DNA of 64,000 nt from an uncultured Trueperaceae bacterium (GTDB lineage: Bacteria > Deinococcota > Deinococci > Deinococcales > Trueperaceae). Shown piece after piece: positions 5,879 through 60,053 of this stretch; position 1 is the stretch's first letter, and each line of letters begins with the position of its first letter. The notes beneath the pieces were generated by a model, which saw only the letters and a list, made by a program, of their open reading frames with translations, was not told the DNA's origin and made no database searches. A program made the position numbers and the translations under genes. The stretch covers positions 320,001-384,000 of the forward strand of contig CAVSGP010000004.1 of assembly GCA_963727505.1 (NCBI GenBank), written 5' to 3'.

Positions 5879-5921
5879 GGCCGGTGCTGGCAACGCCTCG
5901 GCGCGAGCGCGAGGGGACGTC

Positions 5922-6938: not shown

Positions 6939-7019
6939 CGCTCCCGCTCCTGCCCAGGACTGGCCGATCGCAGCCCATCACCGCCTCTCCCGGCCACGGG
7001 GTCCGGCTAGAGTCTGGGC

Positions 7020-12217: not shown

Positions 12218-12361
12218 CCACTAGCCTCCGACGCATCACGGCACGTACCCGACCGCAGATGGCGGCACGCGCTCGCGGAAGTTCAAGACGCAGCACAGTG
12301 TAGCACCCGGGCACGCGTGCCCCTGGCGCGCCGTGCTGCTCGTTCAACGCTCTGGGCGCCT

Positions 12362-13264: not shown

Positions 13265-13353
13265 GGCGGAAAGGATACACCGTCGTCTCCCCGGGGCACA
13301 CATCCCTGCTCGCCCCGTGCGGTCGGGGTCGCGATTCTCCGTCAGGCCCAGGG

Positions 13354-13890
13354 TCAGCCGAGCTGCTTGGCGTACCAGTCGAGCACGGGCTTCGCGTCGA
13401 TCGCGAAGGCGTACCCCAGTCTCTCCCAGAAGCGGCGCGCGCGCGGATTCTGCCCGTAGATGCTGGCGAGCACCCGTCGCACGCGGCCGCGTAGACGCTC
13501 TTCGAGATCGCGCACGCATTGGCCGCCGATGCCGCGCCCCTGCAGGTCGCCTTCGACCAACAGCAAGTTGACCGTGGCATCTCCGGCGTCGGGGTAGTCG
13601 AGCTTGTAGTCGAGGTAGCCCACGACCTGACGCCCGCTCACCGGGTCCTCGAGTTCGGTATCGCGCGGAAGGCGCTCATGAGGAGGCAAGAGCACCAGCT
13701 CGATTCGCCGCCGGCTGTCGCGGACCGCGGTGTCGAGGTCCGTCTTGACTTCGGCGAGCGTCGGGATCGGGATGGAGATGACGTCGAAATAGCCGGGGGT
13801 CTTCTCGTAGAGTCGATGGACCAGGGTGGCATCTGACGCGTCGGCGGGACGCGTCAGGGCACCGGGCGACGTCAGATTCAATGCGCTCAT
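13354..13890 (-). CDS. GNAT family N-acetyltransferase
   Basis: Acetyl-CoA motif 'LQGRGIG' and 'NPRARRFWERLGY'. GGAAGG RBS precedes the ATG at 13890. Confidence 0.85.
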   Translation of the reverse strand: MSALNLTSPGALTRPADASDATLVHRLYEKTPGYFDVISIPIPTLAEVKTDLDTAVRDSRRRIELVLLPPHERLPRDTELEDPVSGRQVVGYLDYKLDYPDAGDATVNLLLVEGDLQGRGIGGQCVRDLEERLRGRVRRVLASIYGQNPRARRFWERLGYAFAIDAKPVLDWYAKQLG

Positions 13891-14122
13891 CCTTCCGGCA
13901 CTCCTCGCATGCACGGCACGTAGGTTTTGACGGCCACGGCACGAGTATATCGTGCCCGGCGGAACACTCGCGGAGGATTGGGTCACACGCCGAGGGCCCC
14001 TGGGGCCCGTTCCCGTTCGCTGGAGGACAGGGCGATAAGGAGGAAACATCGCTTGCGCCTGGGAGCACCATTGCGTAGGGTGTGACGAGCCATCGCCCCC
14101 GTGCAGGACTTCGACGGGTGCG

Positions 14123-14131
14123 TGCTATAGT
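14123..14131 (+). promoter_or_regulatory. Extended -10 promoter for the spt operon
   Basis: TGcTATAGT (TG at 14123-24, TATAGT at 14126-31), about 25-35 nt upstream of the TTG starts. Confidence 0.5.
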
Positions 14132-14154
14132 GCCCTAATTGGCTTGCAGCCGCG

Positions 14155-15423
14155 TTGGAGGAAGTCTTGTCAGAGGTCGTTGACGCCCGCCAGAATCCGG
14201 TGACTCAGGAAGGCTCCGAGCAGCGCTCGGGGCGAGCCCGGGACGCCTTCGCGAAGGCCTTCGCGTTCAGTCGCGCCGAACAGGCCGAGTCGGCGGGCCT
14301 GCACCCCTACTTCAAACCCATCGCCGCCCAGCACGGCGGAACCGTCCGCGCGAACGGACGGGAGATGGTCATCACCGGTTCGAACGACTACCTGGGCCTG
14401 ACCCAGGACGAGCGCCTCAAGAACGCGGCCCGCGACGCGCTGGACGACTTCGGCACGAGCTGCACCGGCTCGCGCTTCCTGACCGGCACGCTGACGCTCC
14501 ACGAGACGCTCGAGCAGCGTCTCGCGAGCTTCCTCAACAAGGAGGCGGCTCTCACGTTCAGCGCCGGTTATCTCGGTTGCCTCTCGGTTGTGAGCGCCCT
14601 CGCCGGTCGGCACGACATCCTGTACTACGACCGCGAGAACCACGCCTCGCTCTACGACGCTGCTCGTCTGTCGTTCGCGACCTTGCGCAAGTACGATCAC
14701 AATGACCTCGATCACCTCGAGCGCCTTCTGGCTGCGGACGCCGACAAGCCGGGTGGGCGCATCATCGTGTCCGACGGCGTCTTCTCCATGAGCGGCCACA
14801 TCGTGGACCTGCCGGGCCTGGTCGAGGTCAAGCGCCGCTACGGCGCGCGCCTGATGATCGACGACGCCCACGCCAGCGGCGTTCTGGGCGACGGCGGCCG
14901 TGGCACCGGCGAGCACTTCGGCCTCGAGGACGAGGTCGACGTCATCATCGGCACCTTCTCGAAGTCGTTCGCGAGCGTCGGCGGGTTCATGGCCGGTGAT
15001 CACAAGGTGGTGCAGTTCGTCAAGCATCACGCGCGCCCCTTCATCTTCACCGCCGCCCTGCCCGCCATGCAGATGGCGGCCGCGCTTGCCGCGCTCGACA
15101 TCATGGAGACCGAACCCGAGCATCGCCGGCGCCTGTGGAGCAACGTCCAGCGCTTCCGCACCGGGATGCAAGAGCTCGGCTTCGATACGCTCGGCTCCGA
15201 GACCCCGATCGTGCCTGTGCTGGTAGGCGAGGATGACCGAGCGCTGGCCTTCTGGAAGGGCCTGTGGGACGCGGGTGTGTTCACGACCCCGGCGCTGCCG
15301 CCCGGTGTTCCCCCCGGGCACTCGATCATCCGGACCAGCGTCAACGCGAACCACACGGACGACGAGCTCGACCGCCTTCTCACCGCGTTCGAAACGGTGG
15401 GCAAGGGGCTTGGTGTAATCTGA
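14155..15423 (+). CDS. spt: Alpha-oxoamine synthase, serine palmitoyltransferase-like clade
   Basis: N-terminal 'GLHPYFKPI', 'GSNDYLGL', 'GTSCTGSRFLTGTL', 'DRENHAS', 'DDAHASG' and PLP-Lys motif 'GTFSKS'. These resemble Bacteroidota/Sphingomonas SPT more than BioF/Kbl. The start may be TTG 14167 (GGAGG upstream). Confidence 0.72.
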   Translation: MEEVLSEVVDARQNPVTQEGSEQRSGRARDAFAKAFAFSRAEQAESAGLHPYFKPIAAQHGGTVRANGREMVITGSNDYLGLTQDERLKNAARDALDDFGTSCTGSRFLTGTLTLHETLEQRLASFLNKEAALTFSAGYLGCLSVVSALAGRHDILYYDRENHASLYDAARLSFATLRKYDHNDLDHLERLLAADADKPGGRIIVSDGVFSMSGHIVDLPGLVEVKRRYGARLMIDDAHASGVLGDGGRGTGEHFGLEDEVDVIIGTFSKSFASVGGFMAGDHKVVQFVKHHARPFIFTAALPAMQMAAALAALDIMETEPEHRRRLWSNVQRFRTGMQELGFDTLGSETPIVPVLVGEDDRALAFWKGLWDAGVFTTPALPPGVPPGHSIIRTSVNANHTDDELDRLLTAFETVGKGLGVI

Positions 15424-15447
15424 CAACCGAATAAGGGGTGATCAGCC

Positions 15448-16557
15448 ATGGTCGAGATCAAGAAGGTCGCGACGAAGCGCGACCTCGGTCGTTTCATTGA
15501 TTACGTCTACGACAAATACCGGGGTGATCCGACCTTCGTGCCCCCGCTGCGCATGGGGGAGTTCGACAAGCTGAACCCGAAGAAGAACCCCTTCTTCGAG
15601 CACGGCCGGATCACCCCCTACCTCGCCGAACGCGACGGACGCATCGTCGGCCGCATCGCCTGCATCGACAACGACGCCCACAACGAGCAGTTCGGAGACA
15701 ACCTGGTGTTCTTCGGGTTTTTCGAGGCCGAGGACGCCGAGATCGCCGCGGCGCTGTACGAAGCCGTCGAGAAGGAGGCGCGGGCGCTGGGCAGGGACAC
15801 CGTTCGCGGTCCCGCCAACCCCACCATGGACGACGGCGCCGGCTTCCAGATCGATGCCTTCGAGACCAGGCCGTTCATCATGATGCCGCAGAATCCGCCG
15901 GACTATCTGGGCTTCGCCGAGGCTTCCGGTTACAGCAAGATCAAGGACCTCTACGCTTGGAAGATCGACATCCGCCACGGCGCCACCGAACGCCTGGAGC
16001 GCATGGCCGATCGCGTACGCAAGCGCTACGACGTCACGGTGCGACCCGCCGACATGAAGCAGTTCAAGCGCGAGGTCGGCCTGCTCAAGCACCTCTACAC
16101 CGTCGCCTGGGAGGAGAACTGGGGGCAGGTGCGCGGCACCGACGCGGAGTTCGACTATCTTGCCAACGACCTCAAGATGATCATGGAGCCGGAGCTGGCG
16201 CTCTTCCTCGAGTACAAGGGGGAGACGGTGGGGCTCTCGATCACCATCCCGGACCTCAACCAGGTGCTGGCGAAGTTCAACGGCCGGCTCTTCCCCTTCG
16301 GGATCTTCCACCTGCTCAACCGCAAGAAGATCATCGACCAGGGACGGCTCGCCATCCTCGGGGTGTTGCCGGAGTATCGCCGGAAGGGTTTCGAGCTGCT
16401 CATGATCGCCGAGACCGCGCGGCGCGGTCGCGCCATCGGCTACACCGGCGGCGAGTGCAGCTGGGTGCTCGAGGACAATGACGCCATGAACCGTGGGATC
16501 GAGGCGGCGGGCAGCGAGCTCTACAAGACCTACCGTATGTACCAGAAGGCGCTGTGA
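15448..16557 (+). CDS. Tandem-GNAT N-acyltransferase, YghO / bacterial ceramide synthase (bCerS)-like
   Basis: 'DLGRFI..Y..DP.FVPPL...NPKKNPFFEH', 'VGRIA', 'FFGFFE', 'FIMMPQNPPDY', 'AWEENWG', 'IPDLNQ', 'LGVLPEYRRKG' and 'ECSWVLEDN..MNR'. Confidence 0.75.
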   Translation: MVEIKKVATKRDLGRFIDYVYDKYRGDPTFVPPLRMGEFDKLNPKKNPFFEHGRITPYLAERDGRIVGRIACIDNDAHNEQFGDNLVFFGFFEAEDAEIAAALYEAVEKEARALGRDTVRGPANPTMDDGAGFQIDAFETRPFIMMPQNPPDYLGFAEASGYSKIKDLYAWKIDIRHGATERLERMADRVRKRYDVTVRPADMKQFKREVGLLKHLYTVAWEENWGQVRGTDAEFDYLANDLKMIMEPELALFLEYKGETVGLSITIPDLNQVLAKFNGRLFPFGIFHLLNRKKIIDQGRLAILGVLPEYRRKGFELLMIAETARRGRAIGYTGGECSWVLEDNDAMNRGIEAAGSELYKTYRMYQKAL

Positions 16558-17288
16558 GCCCGCTGCGTTCGGTCGGCGTGGTGTTCGCCGACCTGGCGCA
16601 GCTGTTCGACCGGAAGCACGCCCGGCTGTGGTTCCTGCTCACTGCGGCGGTGCTTCTGCAGGTGGGATTCTGGTACATCGCCAGCCCCGGCCCCGCGCTC
16701 ATGCAGTTCCAGCCGCGCACGCTGACGACAGGCATCACCACGGTGGCGTGGTCCCTGGTGTTCCTGCTGGCCCTGCCCGCACTGTTGCTGGCGGTCGTGG
16801 GCGTCGATCTCAGGCACGTCGGGCTTCGCCTCGGCGACGCCCGGTTCGGCCTCTCCGTGGCGCTGGGCGGCGCCGTGATCGTCGTGCCGCTGATGTACCT
16901 GGCCAGTTTCGACAAGGGGCTCCAGGCGACCTACCCCTGGGCGGGCGCCTGGGTCGGGCGCAGCCTCGGCACCATCTTGCTTTGGGCCCTCATCTACGGC
17001 CTGTACTACGTCGCGTTCGAGTTCTTCTACCGAGGCTTCCTGCAGCGCATCGTCGCCGACGCCTGGGGCGCCCCGCAGGGCATCTGGGTGCAGACGTTGG
17101 CGGCCACCCTCATCCACCTAGGGAAGCCCATGACCGAGCTGCTGGCCGCGCTGCCCGCCAGCCTGCTCTTCGGAGCGCTGGCGCTGCGCAGCCGGTCGGT
17201 GCTCTACTCCACCATCATCCATCTGGTCATCGGCCTGTCCACCGATCTGTTCGTGCTCTACCACCAGGGCCTGCTGTTCCACCGCTGA
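16554..17288 (+). CDS. CPBP (Abi/CAAX) family intramembrane metalloprotease-like protein
   Basis: Multiple TM helices with 'FEFFYRGFL', 'LIHLGKP' and 'STIIH'. Shares a GTGA overlap with the previous gene. Confidence 0.8.
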   Translation: MSPLRSVGVVFADLAQLFDRKHARLWFLLTAAVLLQVGFWYIASPGPALMQFQPRTLTTGITTVAWSLVFLLALPALLLAVVGVDLRHVGLRLGDARFGLSVALGGAVIVVPLMYLASFDKGLQATYPWAGAWVGRSLGTILLWALIYGLYYVAFEFFYRGFLQRIVADAWGAPQGIWVQTLAATLIHLGKPMTELLAALPASLLFGALALRSRSVLYSTIIHLVIGLSTDLFVLYHQGLLFHR

Positions 17289-17348
17289 CGCCATGGCCCG
17301 CCGCGACGCCCGAAATGACCGAGCGAGACCCCTTCCTGGTAGGCTTGG

Positions 17349-18350
17349 ATGGCGACGGCTGTCATGAAAGTCCTGGTTACCGGTGCCCATGGCTTCCTCG
17401 GGAGCCACATCAGCGAACACCTGCTGGCCGCAGGCCACCAGGTGCGGGCCCTCGTCTCCCCCTGGGGGACCATCGGGAACCTGTCCGCGGTGCTCGATCG
17501 GCAGAGCTTGGAGATCCGGCGCGCCGACCTCAGCCGCGAGGGCGCCCTGGGCGGCGCCTGCGACGGCGTCGATGCCGTGGTGCACGCCGCCGCCCGCGTC
17601 GCCGACTGGGGACCTTGGGACGCCTTCTACCGCACCAACGTGATGGGCACGCAACAGCTCCTGCAGGAGGCCACCCGTGCGGGCGCAGCTCGTTTCGTGC
17701 TCATCTCCAGCGTCGCCGTCCACCGCTACAGCGGCTTCCGCAACGCCGACCCGCGTGAGGTCCCCCGCGACAACCTGCGCGAGGCCTACGCGCACTCCAA
17801 GATCATGGCCGAGGACCTGGTCCGGCAGGCCGAGGGGATCGAGGGCGTGATCGTGCGCCCCGGGCTGTGGCCCTTCGGCCCGCGGGATCCCAACTTCCGC
17901 CGCGTGGCACGCGCGCTCGAGCAGGGCGTTCTCCCCATGGTGGGGAGCGGCGACAGCGTCATCAACACGGCCTACGCCGAGAACCTCGCCCTCGGGATAC
18001 GCCTGGCGTTGGAGCGCGCGGAGGCGGCCCACCGCTCGTACGTGATCGCCGACGACGGCATGCCGAGCTGGCGGGAGCTGCTCGCCGAGCTGGCGCGCCT
18101 CCTGGGCGAGCGTCCGCCCCGGTTGCGCCTGCCCGGGACCCCCACCAAGGCGCTCGCCCGCGGCGTGGAAGCGACCTGGGGAGCCCTCTTCCCGCGCAAC
18201 GAGCCCCCCATGACACGCTACCGTGCTGGATTGATGACCCGCGACGTGCACTTCAGCATCCGGCACGCCGTGGAGGAGCTGGGCTACCACCCGGTGGTGT
18301 CCTGGCGCGAGGGGCTGCGCCGCTCGGTAGGTGCCCTCGCCCCCGTCTAG
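17349..18350 (+). CDS. Extended SDR NAD-dependent epimerase/dehydratase (3-beta-HSD-like); candidate 3-keto-sphingoid/ceramide reductase
   Basis: 'VLVTGAHGFLG', 'VVHAAA', 'TNVMGT', 'ISSVAV' and catalytic 'YAHSK'. An alternative start is ATG 17364. Confidence 0.82.
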   Translation: MATAVMKVLVTGAHGFLGSHISEHLLAAGHQVRALVSPWGTIGNLSAVLDRQSLEIRRADLSREGALGGACDGVDAVVHAAARVADWGPWDAFYRTNVMGTQQLLQEATRAGAARFVLISSVAVHRYSGFRNADPREVPRDNLREAYAHSKIMAEDLVRQAEGIEGVIVRPGLWPFGPRDPNFRRVARALEQGVLPMVGSGDSVINTAYAENLALGIRLALERAEAAHRSYVIADDGMPSWRELLAELARLLGERPPRLRLPGTPTKALARGVEATWGALFPRNEPPMTRYRAGLMTRDVHFSIRHAVEELGYHPVVSWREGLRRSVGALAPV

Positions 18351-18416
18351 GGCCGGTTCGACGTGCCGCCGCCCCTCCAACCGGGAGCTCTGGCGGCGGT
18401 GGTATGGTGGCGCGAC

Positions 18417-19517
18417 ATGAGCGAGGGATTCGACTTCCTCATCGTGGGCGCAGGCTTCTCGGGAGCTGTCCTCGCCGAACGGATCGCCAGCCAGCGCGGC
18501 GGTAGCGTGCTGGTCGTGGACCGCCGCGATCACATCGGGGGCAACGCCTACGACGAGTACGACGACAACGGCGTGCTGGTCCACCGCTACGGGCCGCACA
18601 TCTTCCACACCAACGCCAAGAGCGTGTTCGATTACCTGTCACAGTTCACGGGCTGGCGTCCCTACCAGCACCGCGTGAGGGCCCTGGTCGATGGCCGCCT
18701 GGTGCCGATCCCGATCAATCTCGATACCATCAACACCCTGTACAACCTCGACCTGTCGAGTTCCGAGCTGGAGGCGTTCTTCTCGGCGCGCGCCGAGAAG
18801 CGCGAGCGCATCGAGACGTCCGAAGACGTGGTGGTGGCGCGCGTCGGGCGGGAGCTGTTCGAGAAGTTCTTCCGCGGCTACACCAAGAAGCAGTGGGGGC
18901 TCGAGCCCAAGGAGCTCGACGCCACCGTGACCGCGCGCGTGCCGGTGCGCACCAACCGCGACGACCGCTACTTCACCGACGTCTACCAGGCGATGCCCCT
19001 CCACGGCTACACGGCGATGTTCCGCCGCATGCTGCGCCATCCCAACATCAAGGTGATGCTCAACACCGACTACCGCGAGGTGGCCGATCTGGTACCCCAC
19101 AAGCACCTGATCTACACCGGTCCCATCGACGGCTACTTCGAGCACAGCCTGGGCCCGCTACCCTACCGTTCGCTGGAGTTCGAGTTCGTCACCCACGACG
19201 AGGAGCAGGTGCAGGAGACCGGCACCACCAACTACCCGAACGACTACGCCTACACCCGGCGCACCGAGATGAAGCACCTGACCGGCCAGCGGCACGCCAA
19301 GTCGGTGCTCGTGTACGAGCACCCACGCGCCGAGGGCGATCCCTACTACCCGGTGCCCAGGCCCGAGAACCGGGCGCTCTACGAGGAGTACAGCACCATG
19401 GCCGCCGAGCTCGCGCACGTCACGTTCGCCGGCCGTCTCGGTACCTACCGGTACTACAACATGGATCAGGTCGTGGCACAGGCGCTCAAGACCTTCGAGA
19501 CGCTGCCGGACGTGTGA
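18417..19517 (+). CDS. glf: UDP-galactopyranose mutase
   Basis: 'IVGAGFSG', 'HIGGNAYD', 'HRYGPHIFHT', 'YTKKQWG', 'DPYYPVP' and 'GRLGTYRYYNMDQVV'. Confidence 0.96.
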   Translation: MSEGFDFLIVGAGFSGAVLAERIASQRGGSVLVVDRRDHIGGNAYDEYDDNGVLVHRYGPHIFHTNAKSVFDYLSQFTGWRPYQHRVRALVDGRLVPIPINLDTINTLYNLDLSSSELEAFFSARAEKRERIETSEDVVVARVGRELFEKFFRGYTKKQWGLEPKELDATVTARVPVRTNRDDRYFTDVYQAMPLHGYTAMFRRMLRHPNIKVMLNTDYREVADLVPHKHLIYTGPIDGYFEHSLGPLPYRSLEFEFVTHDEEQVQETGTTNYPNDYAYTRRTEMKHLTGQRHAKSVLVYEHPRAEGDPYYPVPRPENRALYEEYSTMAAELAHVTFAGRLGTYRYYNMDQVVAQALKTFETLPDV

Positions 19518-19542
19518 CGTCCGGGACACCGGGGTCAAGCTC

Positions 19543-20721
19543 ATGACGTCACCGAGCGGCACGCGCCCGCGCATCCTCATCGCCATGATCGAGGCCGGGG
19601 GCGGACACCGGGCGCCCGCCCTGGCGTTGCAGGCCGCCCTGGAGCGGGTCCGGCCCGGACGCTTCGACGTCGACGTCTTCGACATCATGCGCCACGTCGG
19701 CGAGGTGGCGCTGGACCGTCGCCACAAGCAGAGCTGGAAGTGGATGCTCGCCCACCCGCGGGTCACCTTCGTGCTGCAGAACGCCATCGATCGCGTCGTA
19801 CCCGTGGCCTGGACCCAGGCCGTGCAGGCTCGGACGCTAGCCGGCTTCCGCCGACGTCTCTCCTCCTTCGTGCGCGAGCAGGGCTACGATCTGGTCGTGG
19901 CCGTGCACTTCATGCCGCTGCAGGCGGCCGCGATGGCCCGCCGTCGGGGCGAGCTGGGCGCCCGGGTGGTGGGCGTCGATACCGACCCCTTCGACGGCCA
20001 CGCCCTCTGGGCGGTCCGGGACGCCGACGAGATCGTGGTGGCGAGCGAGCAGGCGAGGGCGCTGCTGAGCGCCAAGGGCGTGCCCGCTGAGCGGGTGAAG
20101 GTCTTCGGCTACCCGCTCAACCTCGCCTTCGTGGAAACCGTTCCCGACGCCGAAACCGCGCGCCGTCAGCTCGGCCTCGACGCCGCCCGCCTCACCGTGC
20201 TCCACACTCCGGGAGGCGAAGGCATCGGCGGTGATGTCGAAGGCATCGTCAAGGCGGTGCTGGCAGCCGATCTCGACCTGCAGTATGTGGTCATCGCCGG
20301 GCGCAACGAGCAACTCCGCGCGCGGCTGCAGGACCTGGCGGACGCCCACGCCGCTCGGGGAGGCCGGACCCGCCTCAAGGTCGAGGGGTTCACCACCAAC
20401 ATGCCGGAGTGGATCGCGGCCAGCGATCTGGTGCTCGGCAAGGCCGGGGCGGCATCGACCTTCGAGGCGCTGGCGCTGGGCAGGCCCATCTTCCACACCA
20501 GCTACGTGGCGCCCAACGAGAAGCGCAACCTCGAGTACTGCCGGCAGCACGAGATCGGCGGCTACGTGCCCAGGCCCCGAGACGTCGTCGGGCTGCTGGC
20601 GCCCCTCTGCCAGGATCCGGCGCCCCTGCACACCTGGCAAGAGCGCGTCCGAGCTCTGGGCCTCCAGCCGGGAACACTCGACATCGCTGAGCATCTGGCG
20701 GCGCTGGCGGAGGCCCCTTGA
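19543..20721 (+). CDS. GT28-type glycolipid glycosyltransferase (MGDG synthase/UgtP family)
   Basis: 'AGGGHRAPALAL', 'VDTDP...HALW', 'GGEGIG', 'GFTTNMPEWIAASDLVLGKAG' and 'EKRN'. Confidence 0.87.
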   Translation: MTSPSGTRPRILIAMIEAGGGHRAPALALQAALERVRPGRFDVDVFDIMRHVGEVALDRRHKQSWKWMLAHPRVTFVLQNAIDRVVPVAWTQAVQARTLAGFRRRLSSFVREQGYDLVVAVHFMPLQAAAMARRRGELGARVVGVDTDPFDGHALWAVRDADEIVVASEQARALLSAKGVPAERVKVFGYPLNLAFVETVPDAETARRQLGLDAARLTVLHTPGGEGIGGDVEGIVKAVLAADLDLQYVVIAGRNEQLRARLQDLADAHAARGGRTRLKVEGFTTNMPEWIAASDLVLGKAGAASTFEALALGRPIFHTSYVAPNEKRNLEYCRQHEIGGYVPRPRDVVGLLAPLCQDPAPLHTWQERVRALGLQPGTLDIAEHLAALAEAP

Positions 20722-21713
20722 ACAGGATGGTCCTGCGCTCGCTGATCGTCTCCATGGTGCTCAGCGCGTTGGGGCTCGCCTGGGTCGTGTTCCGGGTAGG
20801 CACGCTCCAGGACCTCGCCAGCATCCGCCAACTACGATGGACCTACGGTGTCTGCGCCGTGCTCGGCCTGCTCGGCGCCTTCGTGATGGCGGCGTTCCGG
20901 TTGCGCTTCATGTGCCGCCGCCTGGGCCACACGGTGAAGCTCCGCCATGCCCTGAGAGCGCACATCTTAGGCATGTTCAGCGCCACCGTCACGCCGGGCG
21001 GAAGCGGCGCCACTCCAGCCCTGGCCCTGTCGCTGCAGAGCCAGGGTCTGCCGCCGGGGGTGGCGTGGGCGGTAGGCGTGTCCGTGTTCGGGGCCGACGC
21101 GCTGTTCCACGCCTGGGGGCTCCCCATCGCGCTCGGTCTGCTCTACGCCCTGCATCTCTACCCGCACGCGCCCGGTTGGCTGGCGCTCGGCGCGCTGACG
21201 GTGGCGCTGTCGGCGGGGGTGGCCTACCTGGTGCAGTTCCGGCTCGAGTGGTTGGAGCCGATCGCGCGCTGGGCTCTCCGCGGGCCGCTGGTCCGCTTCC
21301 GCCGTCGCGGATTGCGCTTCGTCGAAACCATGCTCGAGTCCAACCGACTGTTCAAGCGCGCACCGGCGCGCTTCCACCTGATTCTGCAGGCCCTCACGAC
21401 TCTCTCATGGATCTCGTTCTTCTCGGTCCTGTTCTTCGTGGCGCGCGGCCTCGGGCTGCTGGTCTCCCTCGCCTCCATCGAAGCCGCACAGATGGTGGTG
21501 ACGGTGATGTCCACCTTCGTGCCCACACCGGGCGGGAGCGGCTTCCTGGAGCTCGGCATCTCCTACGTGCTGGTCTCGTCCGGAGGCAGTGCGTCGGCAT
21601 CGGTCCCTGCGGCGGTGCTGCTGTGGCGGCTCGTGACCTACTACTCGATCTTCCTACTCGGCCCCCTACTGGGCGGGTACCTGCTGACGCAGCGGATGGC
21701 CCCCGATGCCTGA
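20718..21713 (+). CDS. UPF0104 / lysylphosphatidylglycerol synthase TM-domain (flippase-like) membrane protein
   Basis: Hydrophobic protein with 'VTPGGSGATP', 'FVPTPGGSGFLE' and 'LLWRLVTYY'. Confidence 0.85.
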   Translation: MNRMVLRSLIVSMVLSALGLAWVVFRVGTLQDLASIRQLRWTYGVCAVLGLLGAFVMAAFRLRFMCRRLGHTVKLRHALRAHILGMFSATVTPGGSGATPALALSLQSQGLPPGVAWAVGVSVFGADALFHAWGLPIALGLLYALHLYPHAPGWLALGALTVALSAGVAYLVQFRLEWLEPIARWALRGPLVRFRRRGLRFVETMLESNRLFKRAPARFHLILQALTTLSWISFFSVLFFVARGLGLLVSLASIEAAQMVVTVMSTFVPTPGGSGFLELGISYVLVSSGGSASASVPAAVLLWRLVTYYSIFLLGPLLGGYLLTQRMAPDA

Positions 21714-21765
21714 GAAGCCGCCCGGCCGCACCCACGACCGGGTGCCCGGTGGTACGCTTCGCCGG

Positions 21766-23025
21766 ATGAGCGACTCGGAGACGGCGCTCCGCTTTGCACT
21801 CGCCACGCCGGACTACCCCCCCGATCCCATGGGAACCGGCATCGGAACCTACGCCAAGAGCCTCGCCGAAGGCCTGACGAGGCGTGGGCACCGGGTCCAC
21901 GTTGTAACGCGGGGGCCGGAGGGGGACGCCACGGTCGACGACGGCGGCGTGACGGTTCACCGTATCGGCGTGCAACGGCCGGACTTCCCGACCCACATCG
22001 CCCCGCTCGCCTTCGTAGGCCTCGCCGCGCGGAGCATCGCGAACGAGTTCCGCTACCGCTCGCGCGTCGCGGCCACGCTCGACATGCTGGTGCGGCGCGA
22101 AGGCGTGCAACTCGTGGAGGCCGCGGACTCCTTCGTAGAGGCGCTCTTCTACCGAGCCGCCCGCCACCCGAAGGTGCCCTTCGTGATCCGGCTCCACACC
22201 CCGATGTCGGTGGCAGAACGCTTCGATCGGAACTTGCCCGAGCCGGCCCGCCGCTTGCTTCAGAGTATCGAGCGCGTCCATCTGCGTAGGGCGACACATC
22301 TGAGCGTGCCGAGCGCCACTCCCCGCCGCACCTTCCGGGAGGCCATGCGCCTCGGCGGTCGTCCCATCGAGGCCATCCCCAACCCGCCGCCGGGAATGCC
22401 CGCTGTCACGGCTGCACGAACCAGCATCACGAACGCCGTAACGGACCCGGCCGCACCCGAGGTCCTTTACGTCGGGAGGATCACCGCCGTCAAGGGCGTA
22501 TTCGTGCTCGCCGATGCCATACCCAAAGTGCTCGAGAAGGTGCCAGGAGCGCACTTCCGCTTCGTGGGCGCAGACAGCCCTGCCTCCTCCGGATCGGGCA
22601 CCACGGTGGAGGCCCTCAGGGACCGCCTACCGCAGGCGGCCGCAGCGAAGGTCACCTTCGAGGGGCGCGTTCCGCTACAGCGCATCGGCGCCTACTTGCA
22701 GGGCGCGAGCGTTTGCGTCTTCCCCTCGTTGTTCGAGAACTTCCCCTATACCTGCCTAGAGGCGATGGCTGCCGGCAAAGCCGTCGTCGGCAGCGCGGCG
22801 GGCGGCATGCAGGACATGCTGGACGGCGGGGAGTGCGGCCTTCTTTACCATCCTCCGAACGTCGGCGAGCTCGCCGACGCCATCGTCCGGCTTCTCACCG
22901 ATCACGAGCTTCGCAGCCGCCTGGGCGCCGCTGCCCGTCGCCGCGCCGGCGATGCGTACGGCGAGGACCGGGTCTTCGACGCGACCGTCGGCTTCTACCG
23001 GCGCGCCATCGAGAGCCTCGCCTGA
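21766..23025 (+). CDS. Glycosyltransferase family 4
   Basis: 'YPPDPMGTGIGTY', 'GHRVHVVT', 'YVGRITAVKG' and the EX7E motif 'PSLFENFPYTCLEAMAAG'. A TACGCT -10 box lies 7 nt before ATG 21766. Confidence 0.9.
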   Translation: MSDSETALRFALATPDYPPDPMGTGIGTYAKSLAEGLTRRGHRVHVVTRGPEGDATVDDGGVTVHRIGVQRPDFPTHIAPLAFVGLAARSIANEFRYRSRVAATLDMLVRREGVQLVEAADSFVEALFYRAARHPKVPFVIRLHTPMSVAERFDRNLPEPARRLLQSIERVHLRRATHLSVPSATPRRTFREAMRLGGRPIEAIPNPPPGMPAVTAARTSITNAVTDPAAPEVLYVGRITAVKGVFVLADAIPKVLEKVPGAHFRFVGADSPASSGSGTTVEALRDRLPQAAAAKVTFEGRVPLQRIGAYLQGASVCVFPSLFENFPYTCLEAMAAGKAVVGSAAGGMQDMLDGGECGLLYHPPNVGELADAIVRLLTDHELRSRLGAAARRRAGDAYGEDRVFDATVGFYRRAIESLA

Positions 23026-23083
23026 TGTCGCACCGGCCGAACGTTCACGATTTCGTTCTGGAGCGCCCTGTACACTGGGGGTC

Positions 23084-25651
23084 GTGACGGCGCTGCGTCG
23101 TTTGGCCCTCCTGAACCTGCTCCGGCACCCCTGGCGCAGCCTGGCCACGGTCCTGGGTGTGGGGATCGGCATCGCGGCGGTGCTGACCACCCTGTCGGTC
23201 GGCGCCAACGTCGAGGCCAACGTGCGCGGCGCGCTGCAGGCGGCCGCGGGCAAGGCCGACCTGCTGGTCACGCCGGGCGCCGGCGGACGCGCCGTCTTCG
23301 AGGACGGCCCCGCCCTCGACCTGCTGCGCACCGTCACCGGCGTGAAGGCGGTCTATCCGGTCCTCAACACCCGCGCGGAACCCGTGCGCGCCATCCAGGA
23401 CTTCCAGAAGTCGATCATCCCCGGCGTCGATACCGGGTTCCAGCTCAGCGGTCGCGTCACGACCGAGCCCGCTGACCTGCCGGCCGAGCTCGCGCAGGGC
23501 GCCCTCCCCCAACCCGGGTCGAACGGCGTGGCCATCGCTCAGGGATTCGCTCGCGAACGCGGGATCGCGATGGGCGACACCGTTCGCTTCGCCACCAGCT
23601 TCGGCGACATCCCGCTCACGGTGACGGGCCTCCTCGACGACCGCTACGGGCTGGCCAGCACCAACGGCGGGCGGGTCGGCATCATCGCCATCCAGGACCT
23701 CCGGACCATCCTCCACATGCAGGGGCGCGCCTCCCACATCGAGGTCCTGGTGGATCCATCGGTGCCGGTGGAGGACGTGCGCACGCGCATCGAGGCCCGT
23801 CTCCCGTCGCTGTCGCAGGATCTGACCGTCACCTACCCGGCGGTATCCGGCAACGTGGCATCGGGCATCGTCGACACGCTGCAGTCAGGGCTGTCCGTGC
23901 TTGCGGTGACCCTGCTCGCGCTGGGCGGGTTCATGGCTTACAACACCTTCATGGCCTCGGTGGTGGAGCGCACGCGGGAGTACGCGCTGCTGCGCACCAT
24001 CTGTATGACGCGGGGGGACGTGCAACGCCTGGCGCTGTACGAGGCGGGCGCCCTGAGCCTCGTCGGGGTGCTGGCGGGGCTTGTCCTCGGCGTCGGACTG
24101 GCCTACGTCATCACGCGCATGAACGCGGTCAACCTGGGTTTCGATTTCCGGACGCTGGTCATCCCGGTTCGCAGCGTGGCCCTGGCATCCGGGGTCGGCA
24201 TGATCGTCTCGCTGGCCGCAGGCGTCCTGCCGGCGCGCAGCGCCTCACGCACACCCCCCATCGCGGCCAGCCGCGTTGCGGACGAAGCCCCGTCGCCGCG
24301 CCTGGCGGCGCTGGGCTGGGGCCTGCTGGCATTGGGCGTGGTGTTGGGCGTCCTGCCGTGGTCGGGGTATCTCGCGCTCGCCGCCAGCGGCACCGCGATG
24401 GCGGTGTTCTTCGTCGGGGTGGCCCTGGCCACGCCGAGCCTGCTCCGCCCCTCCCTCCGGCTGCTCACGCCCCTGCTCGCGCGCCTCTTCGGCGCCTCGG
24501 GACGCCTGGGCAGCAACTTCGCCCTGCGCAACGCCGCCCGCAACGGCGTGGCCATCGGCACCGTGGCCGTCGGCACCGGGCTGATCATCGGCGTCGGGTC
24601 GATGGTCGCCGGCATCAACCGGGCCATCGGCTCCTGGGTCGACACCACCATCGTGGGTGACCTGTTCGTGACCTCTCCGGTCAGCTTCCCGGACGACTTC
24701 GAGCAGAAGGCGCAGCAGGTCCCGGGCGTGAACGTGGCCAGCGGCGTCGGCATCCGGGTCGTCCGGTTCGAGCCGAAGGGAGGCGGGCGCGGCCGCTCGA
24801 TCGCGATGATCCTGGTCGACCCGCAGCGCTTCGACCCCAGCGGCGGCTTCGGCCACTTCCAGTACATCCAGGGCCAGGGCGACAACCGCGAGGGCTACCG
24901 CGCTCTGTCGAAGGGCAGTGAGGTCCTGGTGGCCAACACCATGCGCGACAAGTATGGCGTCCAGAAGGGCGACACCATCCGCTTGCGAACCGTCGACGGC
25001 TTCAAGGACTTCCCCGTCGCCGGCGTGGTGGTCGACTTCACCGGCGGTGGCGAGACGGTGGTGGGAAGCATCCACGACCTGCCCCTGTTCGGGGGCGGCT
25101 CGCCCGACCTCTTCGTCATCGCCGACAAGCCCGGTGCCGACCCGCAGCAGGTGCGCCAGGCGTTGCTGACCCGTTTCCCGGGGCTGCACCTCGACGTCAC
25201 CCTCAACGCCGACTACCGGCGCTACGTCTTGAGCCTGACGCAACGATCGTTCCAGACCACCAACATGCTGCTGCTCATCGCGGTGCTGGTCGCGGCGCTG
25301 GGCGTGGCCAACACGCTGGGTATGAACCTGGTGAGCCGCAGTCACGAAATCGCCGTCCTGCGCACGGTCGGCATGACGCGCGGCGGAGTCAGGCGTCTCA
25401 TCGCCTCAGAGGGTATGGTGGTGACTTTGGTGGGCGCCGTACTCGGCGTGGCCTTCGGGTTGCTCCTCTCCCGCGTGATCAGTGCGGGCGCGAGCGCCCT
25501 GACCGGCTTCCTGCTGACGCCTGCGATCAACTGGGCCCTGGTGGGCCTGGCGCTGGCGGCGTCCCCCCTGGTGGGCCTGCTCGCGTCGCTGCTCCCCGCG
25601 CGGCGTGCGGCGCAACTCTCCCCCACCCGGGCGCTGGGATTCGTGGAGTGA
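23084..25651 (+). CDS. FtsX/MacB-like ABC transporter permease (duplicated periplasmic + FtsX domains)
   Basis: 'LLRHPWRSLATVLGVGIG', 'NTFMASVVERTREYALLR', a second repeat 'NTLGMNLVSRSHEIAVLRTVGMTR' and 'LLPARRAA'. A TACACT -10 box lies 7 nt before the GTG. Confidence 0.9.
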   Translation: MTALRRLALLNLLRHPWRSLATVLGVGIGIAAVLTTLSVGANVEANVRGALQAAAGKADLLVTPGAGGRAVFEDGPALDLLRTVTGVKAVYPVLNTRAEPVRAIQDFQKSIIPGVDTGFQLSGRVTTEPADLPAELAQGALPQPGSNGVAIAQGFARERGIAMGDTVRFATSFGDIPLTVTGLLDDRYGLASTNGGRVGIIAIQDLRTILHMQGRASHIEVLVDPSVPVEDVRTRIEARLPSLSQDLTVTYPAVSGNVASGIVDTLQSGLSVLAVTLLALGGFMAYNTFMASVVERTREYALLRTICMTRGDVQRLALYEAGALSLVGVLAGLVLGVGLAYVITRMNAVNLGFDFRTLVIPVRSVALASGVGMIVSLAAGVLPARSASRTPPIAASRVADEAPSPRLAALGWGLLALGVVLGVLPWSGYLALAASGTAMAVFFVGVALATPSLLRPSLRLLTPLLARLFGASGRLGSNFALRNAARNGVAIGTVAVGTGLIIGVGSMVAGINRAIGSWVDTTIVGDLFVTSPVSFPDDFEQKAQQVPGVNVASGVGIRVVRFEPKGGGRGRSIAMILVDPQRFDPSGGFGHFQYIQGQGDNREGYRALSKGSEVLVANTMRDKYGVQKGDTIRLRTVDGFKDFPVAGVVVDFTGGGETVVGSIHDLPLFGGGSPDLFVIADKPGADPQQVRQALLTRFPGLHLDVTLNADYRRYVLSLTQRSFQTTNMLLLIAVLVAALGVANTLGMNLVSRSHEIAVLRTVGMTRGGVRRLIASEGMVVTLVGAVLGVAFGLLLSRVISAGASALTGFLLTPAINWALVGLALAASPLVGLLASLLPARRAAQLSPTRALGFVE

Positions 25652-26394
25652 CCATGGCGACGAGCGACGTTCCTGTCCTACGTGCGACCGCGTTGACCAA
25701 ACGCTACCGCCTCGGCGACCTCACCATCGAGGCGCTGAAGGAGGTCGATCTCACCGTGAAGGCGGGCGAGTTCCTGGCCGTGATGGGCCCCAGCGGCAGC
25801 GGCAAGAGCACGCTCCTGCATCTGCTGGGGCTGCTCGACCTGCCGGACGGCGGCGGCGTCGAGGTGGCCGGGCAGGTCACCGCCGACCTGGACGACGACG
25901 CCCTGACGGGGCTGCGGCGCACCAAGCTGGGGTTCTTGTTCCAGAGCTTCGAGCTGATCCCCAACCTCACGGCCCGTGAGAACATTCTGTTGCCGGCGGA
26001 GATCGCCGGACGCGCTGCCCAGGCGGCCGACCGTCTCCGCGAGCTCTCCGAGCAACTCGCCATCGTCGATCGGCTCAACCACCGTCCCCGTCAGCTTTCC
26101 GGCGGCCAGCGACAGCGTGTGGCACTGGCCCGCGCGCTCATCAACGACCCCGTGGTGGTGCTTGCCGACGAACCCACCGGCAATCTCGACACCCACACCG
26201 GTTCCGAGGTCCTCGACCTGCTCCGGCACGGGGTCGATACCCTTGGTTGGACCGTGGTGATGGTCACCCACGACCCCAACGCCGCCATGCACGCCGACCG
26301 CATCGTATTCCTGCGTGACGGCCGGGTCTCGGGCGAAACCGGCACCGCCCAGAGCAACGCCCGCGACATCATCGAACATTTCGTGGGGGTGTGA
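25648..26394 (+). CDS. ABC transporter ATP-binding protein, LolD/MacB family
   Basis: GPSGSGKS, LSGGQRQR, 'LADEPTGNLD' and 'VTHD'. Confidence 0.95.
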   Translation: MTMATSDVPVLRATALTKRYRLGDLTIEALKEVDLTVKAGEFLAVMGPSGSGKSTLLHLLGLLDLPDGGGVEVAGQVTADLDDDALTGLRRTKLGFLFQSFELIPNLTARENILLPAEIAGRAAQAADRLRELSEQLAIVDRLNHRPRQLSGGQRQRVALARALINDPVVVLADEPTGNLDTHTGSEVLDLLRHGVDTLGWTVVMVTHDPNAAMHADRIVFLRDGRVSGETGTAQSNARDIIEHFVGV

Positions 26395-26422
26395 GCGGGC
26401 CGGCGCGGCCCCCGCAAACCGC

Positions 26423-28663: not shown

Positions 28664-28714
28664 ACCTCCGAGCACCGCGCGTGCACCGGCCGCTTGCCGG
28701 CGCACGCACCTCGG

Positions 28715-53411: not shown

Positions 53412-53576
53412 GACACGTCCCTCCCGTTCACGCTCCGTCGCCTCGTGATCCGGCCCCGATCGTGCGGACCAGCGAGTCACGCGAGACTCTATCGCGTCGT
53501 CAGCGCATTCTAGCCCGTGCCGTGACGACGTCCCGTGGTGTCCCCCGCACGCCGAGCGTCGGCGCTGTCCGGCCGC

Positions 53577-60049: not shown

Positions 60050-60053
60050 GCCT

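Follow-up and report, generated by a model that had tools for sequence, protein, structure and literature searches.

The chromosome of an uncultured Trueperaceae bacterium (Deinococcota) carries glycosylation genes directly after genes resembling those of bacterial ceramide synthesis, and the locus raises the question of which lipid receives the sugars and whether galactofuranose (Galf) is one of them. The window analysed here is a stretch of 64,000 nucleotides. Within it, an operon of 11 genes, all on the same strand, runs from 14155 to 28663, with neighbours overlapping by 4–8 nt or separated by short gaps throughout. Profile scores and cut-offs, in bits, are given in brackets.

14155–15423, + strand: SPT-like α-oxoamine synthase (AOS), PLP-dependent (PF00155, 200.7)
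15448–16557, + strand: bCerS-like GNAT N-acyltransferase, 369 aa (PF00583 GNAT, weak, 22)
16554–17288, + strand: CPBP/Rce1-like polytopic membrane protein (PF02517, 38.3)
17349–18350, + strand: extended SDR, 3-β-HSD/OleD/HpnA-like (PF01370, 102; PF01073, 83)
18417 (ATG) or 18363 (GTG)–19517, + strand: UDP-galactopyranose mutase, Glf (TIGR00031, 388, cut-off 303.75; PF03275, 252.5)
19543–20721, + strand: GT28 MGDG-synthase/UgtP-like lipid glycosyltransferase (PF06925, 36.5, cut-off 25; PF04101, 29.8, cut-off 22)
20718 (TTG) or 20727 (ATG)–21713, + strand: UPF0104/MprF-type flippase-like membrane protein (PF03706, 114, cut-off 33.4)
21706–23025, + strand: GT4 glycosyltransferase in a strain-variable slot (PF00534, 109.5; PF13579, 74.6)
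23083–25651, + strand: MacB/LolCE-type duplicated FtsX permease with two periplasmic core domains (PF02687, 110.8; PF12704, 93.7; two stretches each)
25648–26394, + strand: ABC ATPase partner, MacB/LolD-like (PF00005, 111.7)
26315–28663, + strand: MMPL (RND-type) putative lipid transporter (PF03176, 249)

The original prediction had dealt with the four genes from Glf to the GT4, which form the middle third of the operon, and all four lie on the + strand at the stated coordinates, with identities supported by the family profile scores. It had correctly placed the SPT-like, bCerS-like and SDR genes upstream, but had passed over the CPBP gene at 16554–17288 and had left the conserved MacB-type ABC exporter and the MMPL gene downstream out of the module. 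Its view that this is not an O-antigen or capsule locus holds: neither Wzx/Wzy-type nor initiating transferase families (Bac_transf, WecA-type, Wzx, Wzy and Wzz) occur among the 59 called window ORFs that were scanned, which were those of at least 70 aa that passed the GC3 filter. The same gene order is seen again in 21 independent loci at protein identities of 33–99%, so the clustering goes beyond chance.

The SPT-like enzyme is predicted to catalyse the first step, in which serine and an acyl thioester give 3-ketosphinganine. Among the NCBIfam models serine palmitoyltransferase (CFB type) fits it best, although the scores lie under the cut-offs of all three NCBIfam SPT models (432 against 640, 385 against 500 and 299 against 670 bits) and under that of the BioF model (385 against 426 bits). 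SPT structures lead its PDB matches by 70 bits (Sphingobacterium SPT, 361 bits; Thermus BioF/KBL, 290–291 bits; KBL, 240 bits; BioF, 211 bits), the GTFSKS and DDAH motifs are identical to those of SPT in the alignment and the PLP-lysine motif is kept. The bCerS-like protein, which is predicted to N-acylate the long-chain base, has the weak PF00583 hit as its sole Pfam match and matched no NCBIfam family. There is no curated bCerS model, and membership is supported indirectly, through homology to a GNAT-like protein in locus L037 (end-to-end alignment, 34% identity, E = 1e-67), the gene for which adjoins an α-oxoamine synthase above the NCBI SPT equivalog cut-off (531 against 500 bits). Its homologues of about 370 aa number more than 5481, with 56–63% identity among the matches listed beyond the closest relatives; the nearest Atlas clusters are from Planctomycetota, Bacteroidota, Pseudomonadota and Chloroflexota.

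The CPBP gene, which shares 4 nt with the end of the bCerS-like gene, lies between the bCerS-like and SDR genes in most SPT-linked loci and is a conserved member of the cluster. Its product has eight hydrophobic segments, some of them overlapping, and at each of the positions E156, R160, H188 and H223 at least 95% of 19 aligned sequences (that of the window and 18 homologues) have the same residue. The SDR is predicted to be the 3-keto reductase, equivalent to the CerR step; it scores 160 bits against the OleD 2-alkyl-3-oxoalkanoate reductase model (cut-off 580). A Rossmann motif, MATAVMKVLVTGAHGFLG, forms its N-terminus, and inspection of the sequence revealed neither a signal peptide nor a hydrophobic segment.

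The GT28 transferase is the gene of the glycosylation module that is most firmly tied to these lipid-base genes. To place it, 79 loci with an aligned GT28 were compared; they were picked by GT28 similarity from the best 80 of 248 confirmed matches, so all locus counts are conditional on this sampling, and none of the 79 is from a Thermus or Deinococcus genome. In a tree built with a quick method (SH-aLRT support only, with long-branch warnings), the window GT28 falls within a mostly Deinococcota clade of 39 rows, corresponding to 36 loci. SPT-like and bCerS-like genes lie just 5' of GT28 in 21 of the 36, are clearly missing in seven, and the remaining eight are truncated or only partly clustered. 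The SDR is usually about 1 kb ahead of GT28 in the 21 linked loci, and in the sister clade (40 rows, Spirochaetota and Bacillota) no row has an SPT-like or bCerS-like neighbour. Minimal clusters in L022, L024 and L069 read AOS–bCerS–CPBP–SDR–GT28–MacB, with GT28 as the sole transferase; the ABC and MMPL genes follow in L024 and L069, and the L022 locus ends after MacB. In two Alphaproteobacteria MAGs (L037 and L044) a CPBP–SDR–GT28 module 40–62% identical to that of the window adjoins SPT-like and bCerS-like genes with just 33–38% identity to those of the window; in L037, the one of the two that is annotated, an LptF-like gene follows. GT28 is thus bound physically and evolutionarily to the SPT/bCerS/SDR genes and is a core gene of the cluster.

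The remaining genes of the module are associated more loosely. The UPF0104 protein, predicted to be a glycolipid flippase, has seven hydrophobic segments and scores 88.8 bits against TIGR00374 (flippase-like domain; cut-off 43.2). Its gene lies directly 3' of GT28 in 21 of the 36 clade loci and in 16 of the 21 SPT-linked loci; it is a frequent member of the cluster, and since five SPT-linked loci are without it (L022, L024, L037, L044 and L069) the pathway does not require it. The predicted overlap with the GT28 stop exists if translation begins at the TTG (as TTGA) but not if it begins at the in-frame ATG 5 nt past that stop, and it is therefore plausible rather than certain. Glf, which from the in-frame ATG at 18417 comprises 366 aa (364–366 aa in relatives), is an accessory, present in five of the 21 SPT-linked loci and absent from the other 16. 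It lies between SDR and GT28 in six genomes (the window, L001–L004 and L011) and adjoins GT28 in nine of 17 clade-A loci compared with none of 19 clade-B loci.

The GT4 gene, which shares 8 nt with the end of the UPF0104 gene, is a swappable cassette. Nucleotide homology to L001, L011, L002, L004 and L003 stops at about 21690–21698 and restarts at 23063–23114, and in the three of these with an annotated slot (L001, L011 and L002) the slot holds a GT4 on the minus strand. That of L001 is unrelated to the window GT4 (E = 0.026); thus, a relative with flanking proteins 94–99% identical carries an unrelated GT4 in the opposite orientation. Orthologues of the window-type GT4 (40–52% identity) occur in L006, L013, L014 and L015, in the last three of which no Glf is adjacent. 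The suggested survey of whether glf, GT28 and UPF0104 travel with spt therefore gave a divided answer: GT28 belongs to the core of the cluster and UPF0104 is frequent in it, but with Glf in five and the window-type GT4 in just two of the 21 SPT-linked loci, the four genes are not a single unit.

Downstream, the MacB-type permease, a predicted lipid extractor, recurs in 15 of the 21 SPT-linked loci. Its longest ORF opens at 22952; reading of the sequence and homologues of 855 aa point to a GTG near 23083 as the likely start. The ATPase, the gene of which shares 4 nt with the end of the permease gene, scores 229 bits against the MacB model and 210 bits against the LolD model, both below the cut-offs. 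The MMPL protein scores 266 bits against the MmpL3 model (cut-off 1400), and its N-terminus suggests that the real start may be an ATG near 26423.

Three other readings of the locus were weighed. The product of the module could be a glycoglycerolipid of the Thermus type, on diacylglycerol, or a glycolipid linked to a diol; its genes would then lie near SPT and bCerS only because both sets are part of a general envelope-lipid island and share its exporters. Both of the nearest solved GT28 relatives, Arabidopsis MGD1 (4wyi, 96 bits) and a processive DAG β-glucosyltransferase (9wde, 67 bits), act on diacylglycerol. The subclade nearest the SPT-linked group of the window comprises eight loci (GT28 identity 45–50%); in five of them (L006, L007, L009, L010 and L012) both SPT-like and bCerS-like genes are missing over about 10 kb: L006 reads Glf–GT28–UPF0104–GT2–GT4–MacB–ABC with neither gene within 10 kb upstream, and in the other four GT28 adjoins a second GT28, UPF0104, a GT4 or GT2 and sometimes Glf. 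As the GT28s of this sister subclade are found in loci where no SPT gene adjoins, a diacylglycerol acceptor retains some probability. The consulted parts of PMC3398001 moreover describe a Thermus thermophilus diacylglycerol glycolipid with a β-linked terminal Galf, in agreement with the original statement that Thermus glycolipids can carry this sugar. We nevertheless consider a glycerolipid or diol product unlikely: GT28 comes directly after SDR in most of the 21 linked loci and is the only transferase of the minimal clusters, the Alphaproteobacteria MAGs join the CPBP–SDR–GT28 module to a different SPT/bCerS pair, and SPT neighbours are absent from all 40 sister-clade rows, which are plausibly diacylglycerol enzymes. 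A further reading, that the AOS–GNAT–SDR set makes some other N-acylated amino lipid that is then modified, for example a cysteate-derived sulfonolipid-like compound or a glycine- or alanine-derived 1-deoxy base, appears quite improbable. Homology cannot tell amino-acid specificity, the synthase lies under every SPT equivalog cut-off and cysteate-C-fatty acyltransferase is also a good PDB match (270 bits), but the SPT structures remain 70 bits ahead, the homologous module of L037 accompanies an enzyme above an SPT cut-off, and a glycosyltransferase fixed beside the reductase would imply a free C1 hydroxyl, which serine only would provide.

A glycosylceramide might also be made with GT28 using UDP-glucose or UDP-galactose. 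The UDP-Galf would then go to the GT4 or into a glycan assembled elsewhere, and Galf would either be a sugar that GT28 does not add or be missing from this lipid altogether. Closely placed GT28s (49–50% identity) stand in sister clusters without Glf (L013 and L015), clade-B clusters lack Glf in every case, and Glf-associated GT28s have no clear residue signature, with just five weak columns tracking Glf status. We nonetheless rate this somewhat less likely again than a glycerolipid product. Glf is embedded as SDR–Glf–GT28 in the six genomes, and GT28 is the likeliest galactofuranosyltransferase because it is the only transferase common to all six; L013, L014 and L015 carry the window-type GT4 without Glf. 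GT28 is an inverting family in CAZy and GT4 is a retaining one, which would yield α-Galf. The Galf of the Thermus lipid is β-linked in the part of PMC3398001 consulted, which fits an inverting family such as GT28. The order originally proposed, with GT28 acting first and GT4 extending, cannot be regarded as established; of the two, GT28 is the stronger candidate for attaching Galf, most likely as β-galactofuranose.

The ceramide-based reading can be set beside systems already described. To our knowledge, neither a ceramide or glycosylceramide acceptor nor a UDP-Galf donor is known for GT28 enzymes of the MGD1/UgtP type. The window GT28 shares their domain pair (PF06925 and PF04101), but resembles them weakly (96 bits to MGD1; 97 bits to the UgtP equivalog model, cut-off 500), and its context predicts such an acceptor, possibly with UDP-Galf as donor. 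In the sections consulted, the Caulobacter/Sphingomonas pathway comprises Spt, bCerS and CerR followed by Sgt1/Sgt2, with LptC2/F2/G2 paralogues proposed for transport (PMC11087976, PMC11324152, PMC6445935). The window cluster follows the same plan of SPT-like, bCerS-like and SDR genes, two glycosyltransferases and dedicated transport genes. It differs in its Deinococcota host, in the absence of an ACP or acyl-ACP synthetase gene from the cluster in profile scans, in its core CPBP protein, in the presence of Glf, in its transferases (an MGDG-synthase-like GT28 and a cassette GT4) and in its transport genes (UPF0104, the MacB-type ABC pump and MMPL, with no Lpt paralogues). Its SDR has no signal peptide, whereas Caulobacter CerR is described as periplasmic in the consulted text of PMC11087976.

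Thermus thermophilus, of the same phylum as the window host, has a membrane glycolipid, NGL-C, given in the part of PMC3398001 consulted as Galf(β1-2)Galp(α1-6)GlcpNacyl(β1-2)Glcp(α1-)diacylglycerol. It thus ends in β-galactofuranose, but its anchor is diacylglycerol, whereas the window transferase genes lie inside an SPT/bCerS/SDR operon; an NGL-C-like lipid may be the product of the Deinococcales MAG loci that have GT28, UPF0104, GT4 and in some cases Glf but lack SPT. The UPF0104 protein belongs to the membrane-domain family of MprF and the GlcN-PG flippases (PF03706/TIGR00374/NF053789) and is likewise encoded next to a head-group-modifying enzyme, but it lacks a synthase domain, scores 66.5 bits against NF053789 (cut-off 320) and has a neutral glycolipid as its predicted cargo. 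Like MacB and LolCDE, the permease combines FtsX and MacB periplasmic core domains with a LolD/MacB-like ATPase, and the last gene has MMPL domains as in MmpL3-type exporters; in contrast to these, the permease consists of one duplicated chain, about 855 aa long, and every equivalog cut-off is missed. A MacB-type ABC pump and MMPL protein paired with an SPT cluster was not found in the literature searched.

Taken together, the analysis bears out the original interpretation in part and leads us to favour, with moderate confidence, an operon at 14155–28663 for the synthesis, glycosylation, flipping and export of a glycolipid built on ceramide, the sugars of which probably include Galf. The gene families, operon layout, conserved synteny and cassette variation are observed directly; every substrate, the question of which transferase acts first, the donor of Galf, flipping and export we infer. 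The SPT-like synthase would condense serine with a branched acyl thioester, the bCerS-like GNAT would N-acylate the product and the cytoplasmic SDR would reduce the 3-keto group to give a dihydroceramide. Glf would convert UDP-galactopyranose to UDP-galactofuranose, and GT28 would transfer a sugar, most likely β-galactofuranose, to the lipid at the cytoplasmic face, either onto the ceramide C1 hydroxyl or onto a glycosylceramide primed by the GT4; the interchangeable GT4 would supply a second, strain-specific sugar. UPF0104 would then flip the glycolipid across the inner membrane, and the MacB-type pump and MMPL would move it towards the outer membrane. If true, a new phylum would join the bacteria with sphingolipids, bringing new components for sugar addition and transport.

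The four genes named in the original prediction (Glf, GT28, UPF0104 and GT4, 18417..23025) lie within a row of 11 consecutive plus-strand genes at 14155-28663, which is unbroken in the GC3-based ORF call and the ORF list and has tight junctions (overlaps of 4-8 nt or short gaps). The ORF list and the family scans bear out the coordinates and names proposed for these four genes. The module is larger than was described, as the CPBP gene and three transport genes had been missed.

Genes of the operon, in order, as assigned by family scans (the score behind the Glf assignment is given in its line).
14155-15423, + strand, alpha-oxoamine synthase
15448-16557, + strand, GNAT-like protein, 369 aa
16554-17288, + strand, CPBP/Rce1-like membrane protein
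17349-18350, + strand, extended SDR
18363 or 18417 to 19517, + strand, UDP-galactopyranose mutase Glf (TIGR00031, 388 versus a cut-off of 303.75)
19543-20721, + strand, GT28 MGDG-synthase-like transferase
20718-21713, + strand, UPF0104/LPG_synthase_TM flippase-like protein
21706-23025, + strand, GT4
longest ORF from 22952, likely start GTG near 23083, + strand, duplicated MacB/FtsX permease
25648-26394, + strand, ABC ATPase
26315-28663, + strand, MMPL transporter

Upstream, the operon borders on minus-strand housekeeping genes (efp, accB, accC, nusB and folD); its downstream neighbours are a LEA_2 gene on the minus strand and a peptide ABC importer. A scan of 13500-29200 returned two promoter-like sites (0.9 expected) and two terminator-like sites (4.6 expected). 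A Pfam scan of 59 ORFs of the window returned no PGT, Wzx, Wzy or Wzz family, and an O-antigen or capsule locus is therefore rejected, as had been proposed from the sequence.

Several other genes of the window were recorded. A small GNAT acetyltransferase gene (13354-13891, minus strand) is divergent from the operon start, and beyond it lies a 385-aa ORF without a Pfam family (12362-13519, minus strand); a 503-aa ORF without a family on the plus strand (11948-13459) probably represents a shadow ORF. An HNH endonuclease gene (38112-38537, plus strand) adjoins a phage-holin-4_2 family gene (38607-38969, minus strand), both isolated amid housekeeping genes. A VCA0040-like membrane protein (PF04018, undecaprenyl-phosphate translocase-like) is encoded at 60469-61380, near a DUF3809/DUF3248 gene pair (59540-60617, minus strand) and a gene for a FakA/DAK2-type fatty-acid kinase subunit (51413-53431, minus strand).

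The product of the first gene (14155-15423) is SPT-like: its sequence is clearly nearest to serine palmitoyltransferase (SPT), and use of serine is predicted. It falls below all of the NCBIfam SPT equivalog cut-offs (CFB 432 versus 640, BetaP 385 versus 500, AlphaP 299 versus 670); its top-scoring NCBIfam family is still SPT, with the Bacteroidota-type model (CFB) the best at 432 bits. Among solved structures, it is nearer to SPT (Sphingobacterium, 361 bits) than to KBL, BioF or ALAS (Thermus BioF/KBL, 290-291; KBL, 240; BioF, 211). The PLP-lysine motif is conserved, and the GTFSKS and DDAH motifs are identical to those of SPT in the alignment.

Stankeviciute and coworkers reportedly defined bCerS and CerR in 2022 and listed nine phyla. 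The GNAT-like protein of the window, referred to here as bCerS-like, is of about the same length as its family (some 370 aa) and is encoded beside the SPT-like gene and a reductase gene; the same adjacency to an SPT-like gene is found in 21 loci. It has a single weak GNAT match in Pfam, and no bCerS family match was obtained in Pfam or NCBIfam. The family is very large (more than 5481 matches); among the matches listed, identity is 56-63% once the closest relatives are set aside, and the nearest Atlas clusters are from Planctomycetota, Bacteroidota, Pseudomonadota and Chloroflexota. A bCerS has been defined experimentally in Caulobacter (CC_1154/CCNA_01212). The putative link of the window protein to bCerS is indirect and would run via L037, a locus from an Alphaproteobacteria MAG, in which the alpha-oxoamine synthase passes the NCBI SPT cut-off (531.5 versus 500) and is neighboured by a protein that can be aligned with the window protein over the full length (34% identity, E 1e-67).

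The SDR is most like lipid 3-keto/3-hydroxy enzymes in the NCBIfam scan, for example OleD and HpnA, and has a Rossmann motif from residue 8. Caulobacter CerR is described as periplasmic in the available part of PMC11087976, whereas the window SDR has no signal peptide and no N-terminal hydrophobic segment, and so differs from CerR in this respect. A constant part of the SPT cluster is the gene for the CPBP/Rce1-like protein (16554-17288), which has the bCerS-like gene on one side and the SDR on the other. In an alignment of 19 sequences (the window protein and 18 homologues), at least 95% share each of the residues E156, R160, H188 and H223. The usual CPBP motif is EExxxR; the window protein has Phe where the first Glu would stand. 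We know of no lipid role for the CPBP family.

Glf passes its equivalog cut-off, also matches PF03275 (252.5 bits) and has the FAD-binding Rossmann motif (PF13450, 67.4 bits, residues 27-95; IVGAGFSG in the N-terminus). Both domains of GT28 score above the Pfam gathering scores (PF06925, 36.5 versus 25; PF04101, 29.8 versus 22), and the best PDB match is MGD1 (96 bits, residues 8-353). By the equivalog models GT28 is not a UgtP ortholog (PRK13609, 97 versus 500; PRK13608, 70 versus 557), and a MurG-like role was rejected on a score of only 23.9 bits with TIGR01133 (cut-off 250). UPF0104, with seven hydrophobic segments, is above the cut-offs of PF03706 (114.2 versus 33.4) and TIGR00374 (88.8 versus 43.2) and is not the glucosaminyl-PG flippase equivalog (NF053789, 66.5 versus 320). 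GT4 has the expected domain pair (PF13579, 74.6; PF13439, 66.5; PF00534, 109.5) and reaches no equivalog cut-off in the NCBIfam scan. A fusion of GT28 and UPF0104 was rejected, as the two matches are in different reading frames; GT28 ORFs of 610-710 aa in five loci (L003, L027, L030, L035 and L066) are open-frame artefacts of high G+C DNA.

Relatives of GT28 are few (84 matches), and the named ones at the top are from Deinococcales or Trueperaceae. A genome scan with an alignment of 24 of these relatives as the query gave 328 pattern matches, of which 248 were confirmed as relatives; the best 80 of the 248 define 79 loci (numbered here from L001), all of which were searched with the 11 window proteins by tblastn. 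The GT28 tree has 85 rows (83 matches with at least 70% coverage, the window protein and an extra GT28 from L001; L065, L072 and L078 were excluded for low coverage) and was built with the quick method of IQ-TREE; SH-aLRT is its sole support measure, and it comes with long-branch warnings. The window GT28 falls within a 39-row clade (support 92) comprising 36 loci from Deinococcota, two Alphaproteobacteria MAGs and one actinobacterial MAG. This clade has two parts, clade A (17 loci) and clade B (19 loci).

Upstream context of GT28 in the 36 loci of its clade.
SPT-like and bCerS-like genes both upstream, 21/36: L001-L004, L011, L013, L015, L017, L018, L022, L024, L025, L030, L035-L037, L044, L051, L053, L066, L069
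Contig end cuts the locus, other cluster genes visible, 3/36: L014, L027, L028
bCerS-like gene 10 kb upstream, at the locus edge, 1/36: L005
SDR and MacB, no SPT-like gene within 6 kb, 1/36: L016
Diverged CPBP and SDR only, 1/36: L008
Short contigs, uninformative, 2/36: L026, L034
At least 8.5 kb upstream without an SPT-like or bCerS-like gene, 7/36: L006, L007, L009, L010, L012, L020, L021

The sister clade (Spirochaetota and Bacillota) has SPT-like or bCerS-like neighbours in none of its 40 rows. Because 21 of the 36 clade loci are SPT-linked, against 0/40 sister rows, GT28 belongs to the core of the Trueperaceae cluster, and in three clusters (L022, L024 and L069) it is the sole transferase. 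UPF0104 lies directly 3' of GT28 in 21 of the 36 clade loci; of the 21 loci linked to SPT, 16 have this arrangement. Glf is beside GT28 in five SPT-linked loci (L001-L004 and L011) and in four loci of a neighbouring subclade (L005, L006, L008 and L010), and in none of the 19 clade-B loci; a GT4 of the window type occurs in 4/36 clade loci (L006, L013, L014 and L015). Glf and GT4 are accessory and vary between loci. On the question put in the original prediction, whether glf, GT28 and UPF0104 travel with spt, these loci give a divided outcome: GT28 does, UPF0104 frequently does and Glf does so in five of the 21 SPT-linked loci.

In the two Alphaproteobacteria MAGs (L037, 1-14100, and L044) a CPBP-SDR-GT28 module 40-62% identical to that of the window adjoins SPT-like and bCerS-like genes that are transcribed divergently and are only 33-38% identical to those of the window. 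The module appears to have passed from one phylum to another.

The operon is best read as making a glycosylated ceramide-type lipid, a reading that we rate slightly better than even. The acceptor of GT28 could instead be diacylglycerol, which the solved GT28 homologues use. The lineage of the window GT28 also occurs outside SPT clusters: four loci (L007, L009, L010 and L012) combine a clade-A GT28 (46-50% identical to that of the window) with a second, distant GT28, a GT4 or GT2, sometimes Glf and, in all but L010, UPF0104, with SPT-like and bCerS-like genes absent within about 10 kb. A further locus, L006, has a Glf-GT28-UPF0104-GT2-GT4-MacB-ABC row behind arabinofuranosidase genes. These five loci look like loci for Thermus-type glycoglycerolipids. 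The gene context nevertheless favours ceramide, with 21 SPT-linked loci in the clade as opposed to seven clearly without SPT neighbours. Owing to the occurrence of the lineage outside SPT clusters and the acceptor of the solved homologues, we keep diacylglycerol as a candidate, albeit quite an unlikely one.

The original prediction was of a galactofuranose-bearing glycosphingolipid. It is supported in part: its genes and the linkage of GT28 to SPT stand, while Glf and GT4 prove to be accessory and the module proves to be larger. Galf is likely in the lineage of the window strain. Glf occurs inside the SPT cluster in six genomes (the window, L001-L004 and L011), and the clade-A GT28 is the sole transferase common to all six clusters (67-94% identity). 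Orthologues of the window GT4 occur in L013, L014 and L015 without an adjacent Glf, and the Glf-bearing L001, L002 and L011 have a different, minus-strand GT4. In CAZy, GT28 is an inverting family and GT4 a retaining one. The Galf of Thermus thermophilus glycolipid is beta-linked according to the available text of PMC3398001, which fits an inverting enzyme. Since GT28 is common to the six Glf clusters, GT4 occurs without Glf and the linkage is beta, GT28 would be the likeliest Galf transferase of the cluster. The evidence is weak, as Glf status is tracked by no residue signature; a comparison of the two Glf-bearing subclades gave just five weak columns in GT28 that follow Glf adjacency. GT28 may act directly on ceramide, as would fit its position directly after the SDR in L013, L015 and all clade-B clusters, or it may extend a GT4-primed product, as would fit both the clade-B-type GT28 that L001 also keeps and the clade-A relatives in multi-transferase loci without SPT.

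The GT4 slot is a variable cassette. Nucleotide homology to the five closest loci stops at about 21690-21698 and restarts at 23063-23114, exactly spanning the GT4 gene. In L001, the other cluster proteins of which are 78-99% identical to those of the window, the slot is occupied by an opposite-strand GT4 that is unrelated to the window GT4 (E 0.026). L011 and L002 also have a minus-strand GT4 in this slot (slots were annotated in L001, L002 and L011), and the variable slot of L002 (12146-15830) additionally contains a second UPF0104 (54% identical to that of the window) and a GT2. A second UPF0104 match is present in L004 (56% identical). Between the SDR and Glf, L001, which is the closest relative of the window, further carries an insert of 3.5 kb (5255-8854) with the extra GT28, a divergent clade-B-like protein of 408 aa, and two ORFs without a Pfam family (250 and 360 aa). 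Variation limited to transferase genes in an otherwise conserved operon would be expected for a surface-exposed glycoconjugate. The operon nominates a strain-variable glycan cassette, as a surface-exposed lipid would lead one to expect.

How sphingolipids get through the inner membrane and arrive at the surface of the cell is an unsettled question on which this operon bears, since its candidates for a flippase and for exporters are encoded immediately after the putative ceramide genes. According to the available part of PMC11087976, a bacterial sphingolipid flippase or transporter had not been identified; Lpt paralogues are proposed for Caulobacter sphingolipid transport in the accessible text of a 2026 preprint. 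Of the 21 SPT-linked loci, 15 have a MacB-type permease gene (L013 ends too early downstream to show transport genes), in most of them with the ABC ATPase and MMPL alongside. In L037, the annotated one of the two Alphaproteobacteria loci, an LptF-like gene and a GT2 occupy the transport-gene position; this LptF-like gene recalls the Caulobacter Lpt paralogues that are linked to sphingolipid transport in the part of PMC11324152 available. The conservation of MacB, ABC and MMPL together with the LptF-like gene of L037 supports the prediction that the downstream genes act in export. How UPF0104, MacB and MMPL would share this work is inferred.

Bacterial sphingolipid synthesis genes have been defined only recently. 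Among the papers searched, none was found that pairs Deinococcota with bCerS, Deinococcota with both sphingolipid and serine palmitoyltransferase, or Deinococcus-Thermus with serine palmitoyltransferase; the main text of PMC11334938, as far as available, makes no mention of Deinococc*, and the papers pairing Truepera with sphingolipid are, judging from their accessible parts, all community or microbiome studies. SPT and bCerS may be new to the phylum; they were not found in the literature covered, which does not take in the full data of two large SPT/bCerS/CerR surveys. For Truepera radiovictrix, the available text of PMC3072082 reports the polar lipids only as a complex mixture and assigns two compounds to long-chain 1,2-diols by chromatographic equivalent chain length alone. 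Given the SPT cluster of the family, one may speculate that these peaks are long-chain-base-derived products. L027, from a MAG assigned to T. radiovictrix, contains the end of CPBP, the SDR, GT28, UPF0104, MacB, ABC and MMPL, and its contig ends upstream of CPBP; this cluster is of the clade-B type and has no Glf. Being culturable and having a MAG with a partial cluster, T. radiovictrix is a simple test organism, and the lipid prediction is for this reason directly testable.

To our knowledge, the Deinococcota lack LPS. A more far-reaching reading, which we consider rather unlikely as a whole, is that GT28 would be a new beta-Galf transferase acting on (glycosyl)ceramide, and that its strain-variable product would be a major lipid of the outer leaflet of the Trueperaceae outer membrane with an LPS-like role, flipped by the MprF-like UPF0104 and exported by the MacB-type ABC transporter and MMPL. 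If true, sphingolipids would here be exported by a route that has nothing in common with the Lpt paralogues proposed for Caulobacter. The operon is a variation on bacterial glycosphingolipid pathways already known, with a transferase family that is unusual and with candidates for a flippase and for exporters; it nominates an MGDG-synthase-like GT28 enzyme as a transferase acting on ceramide, possibly with UDP-Galf as donor.
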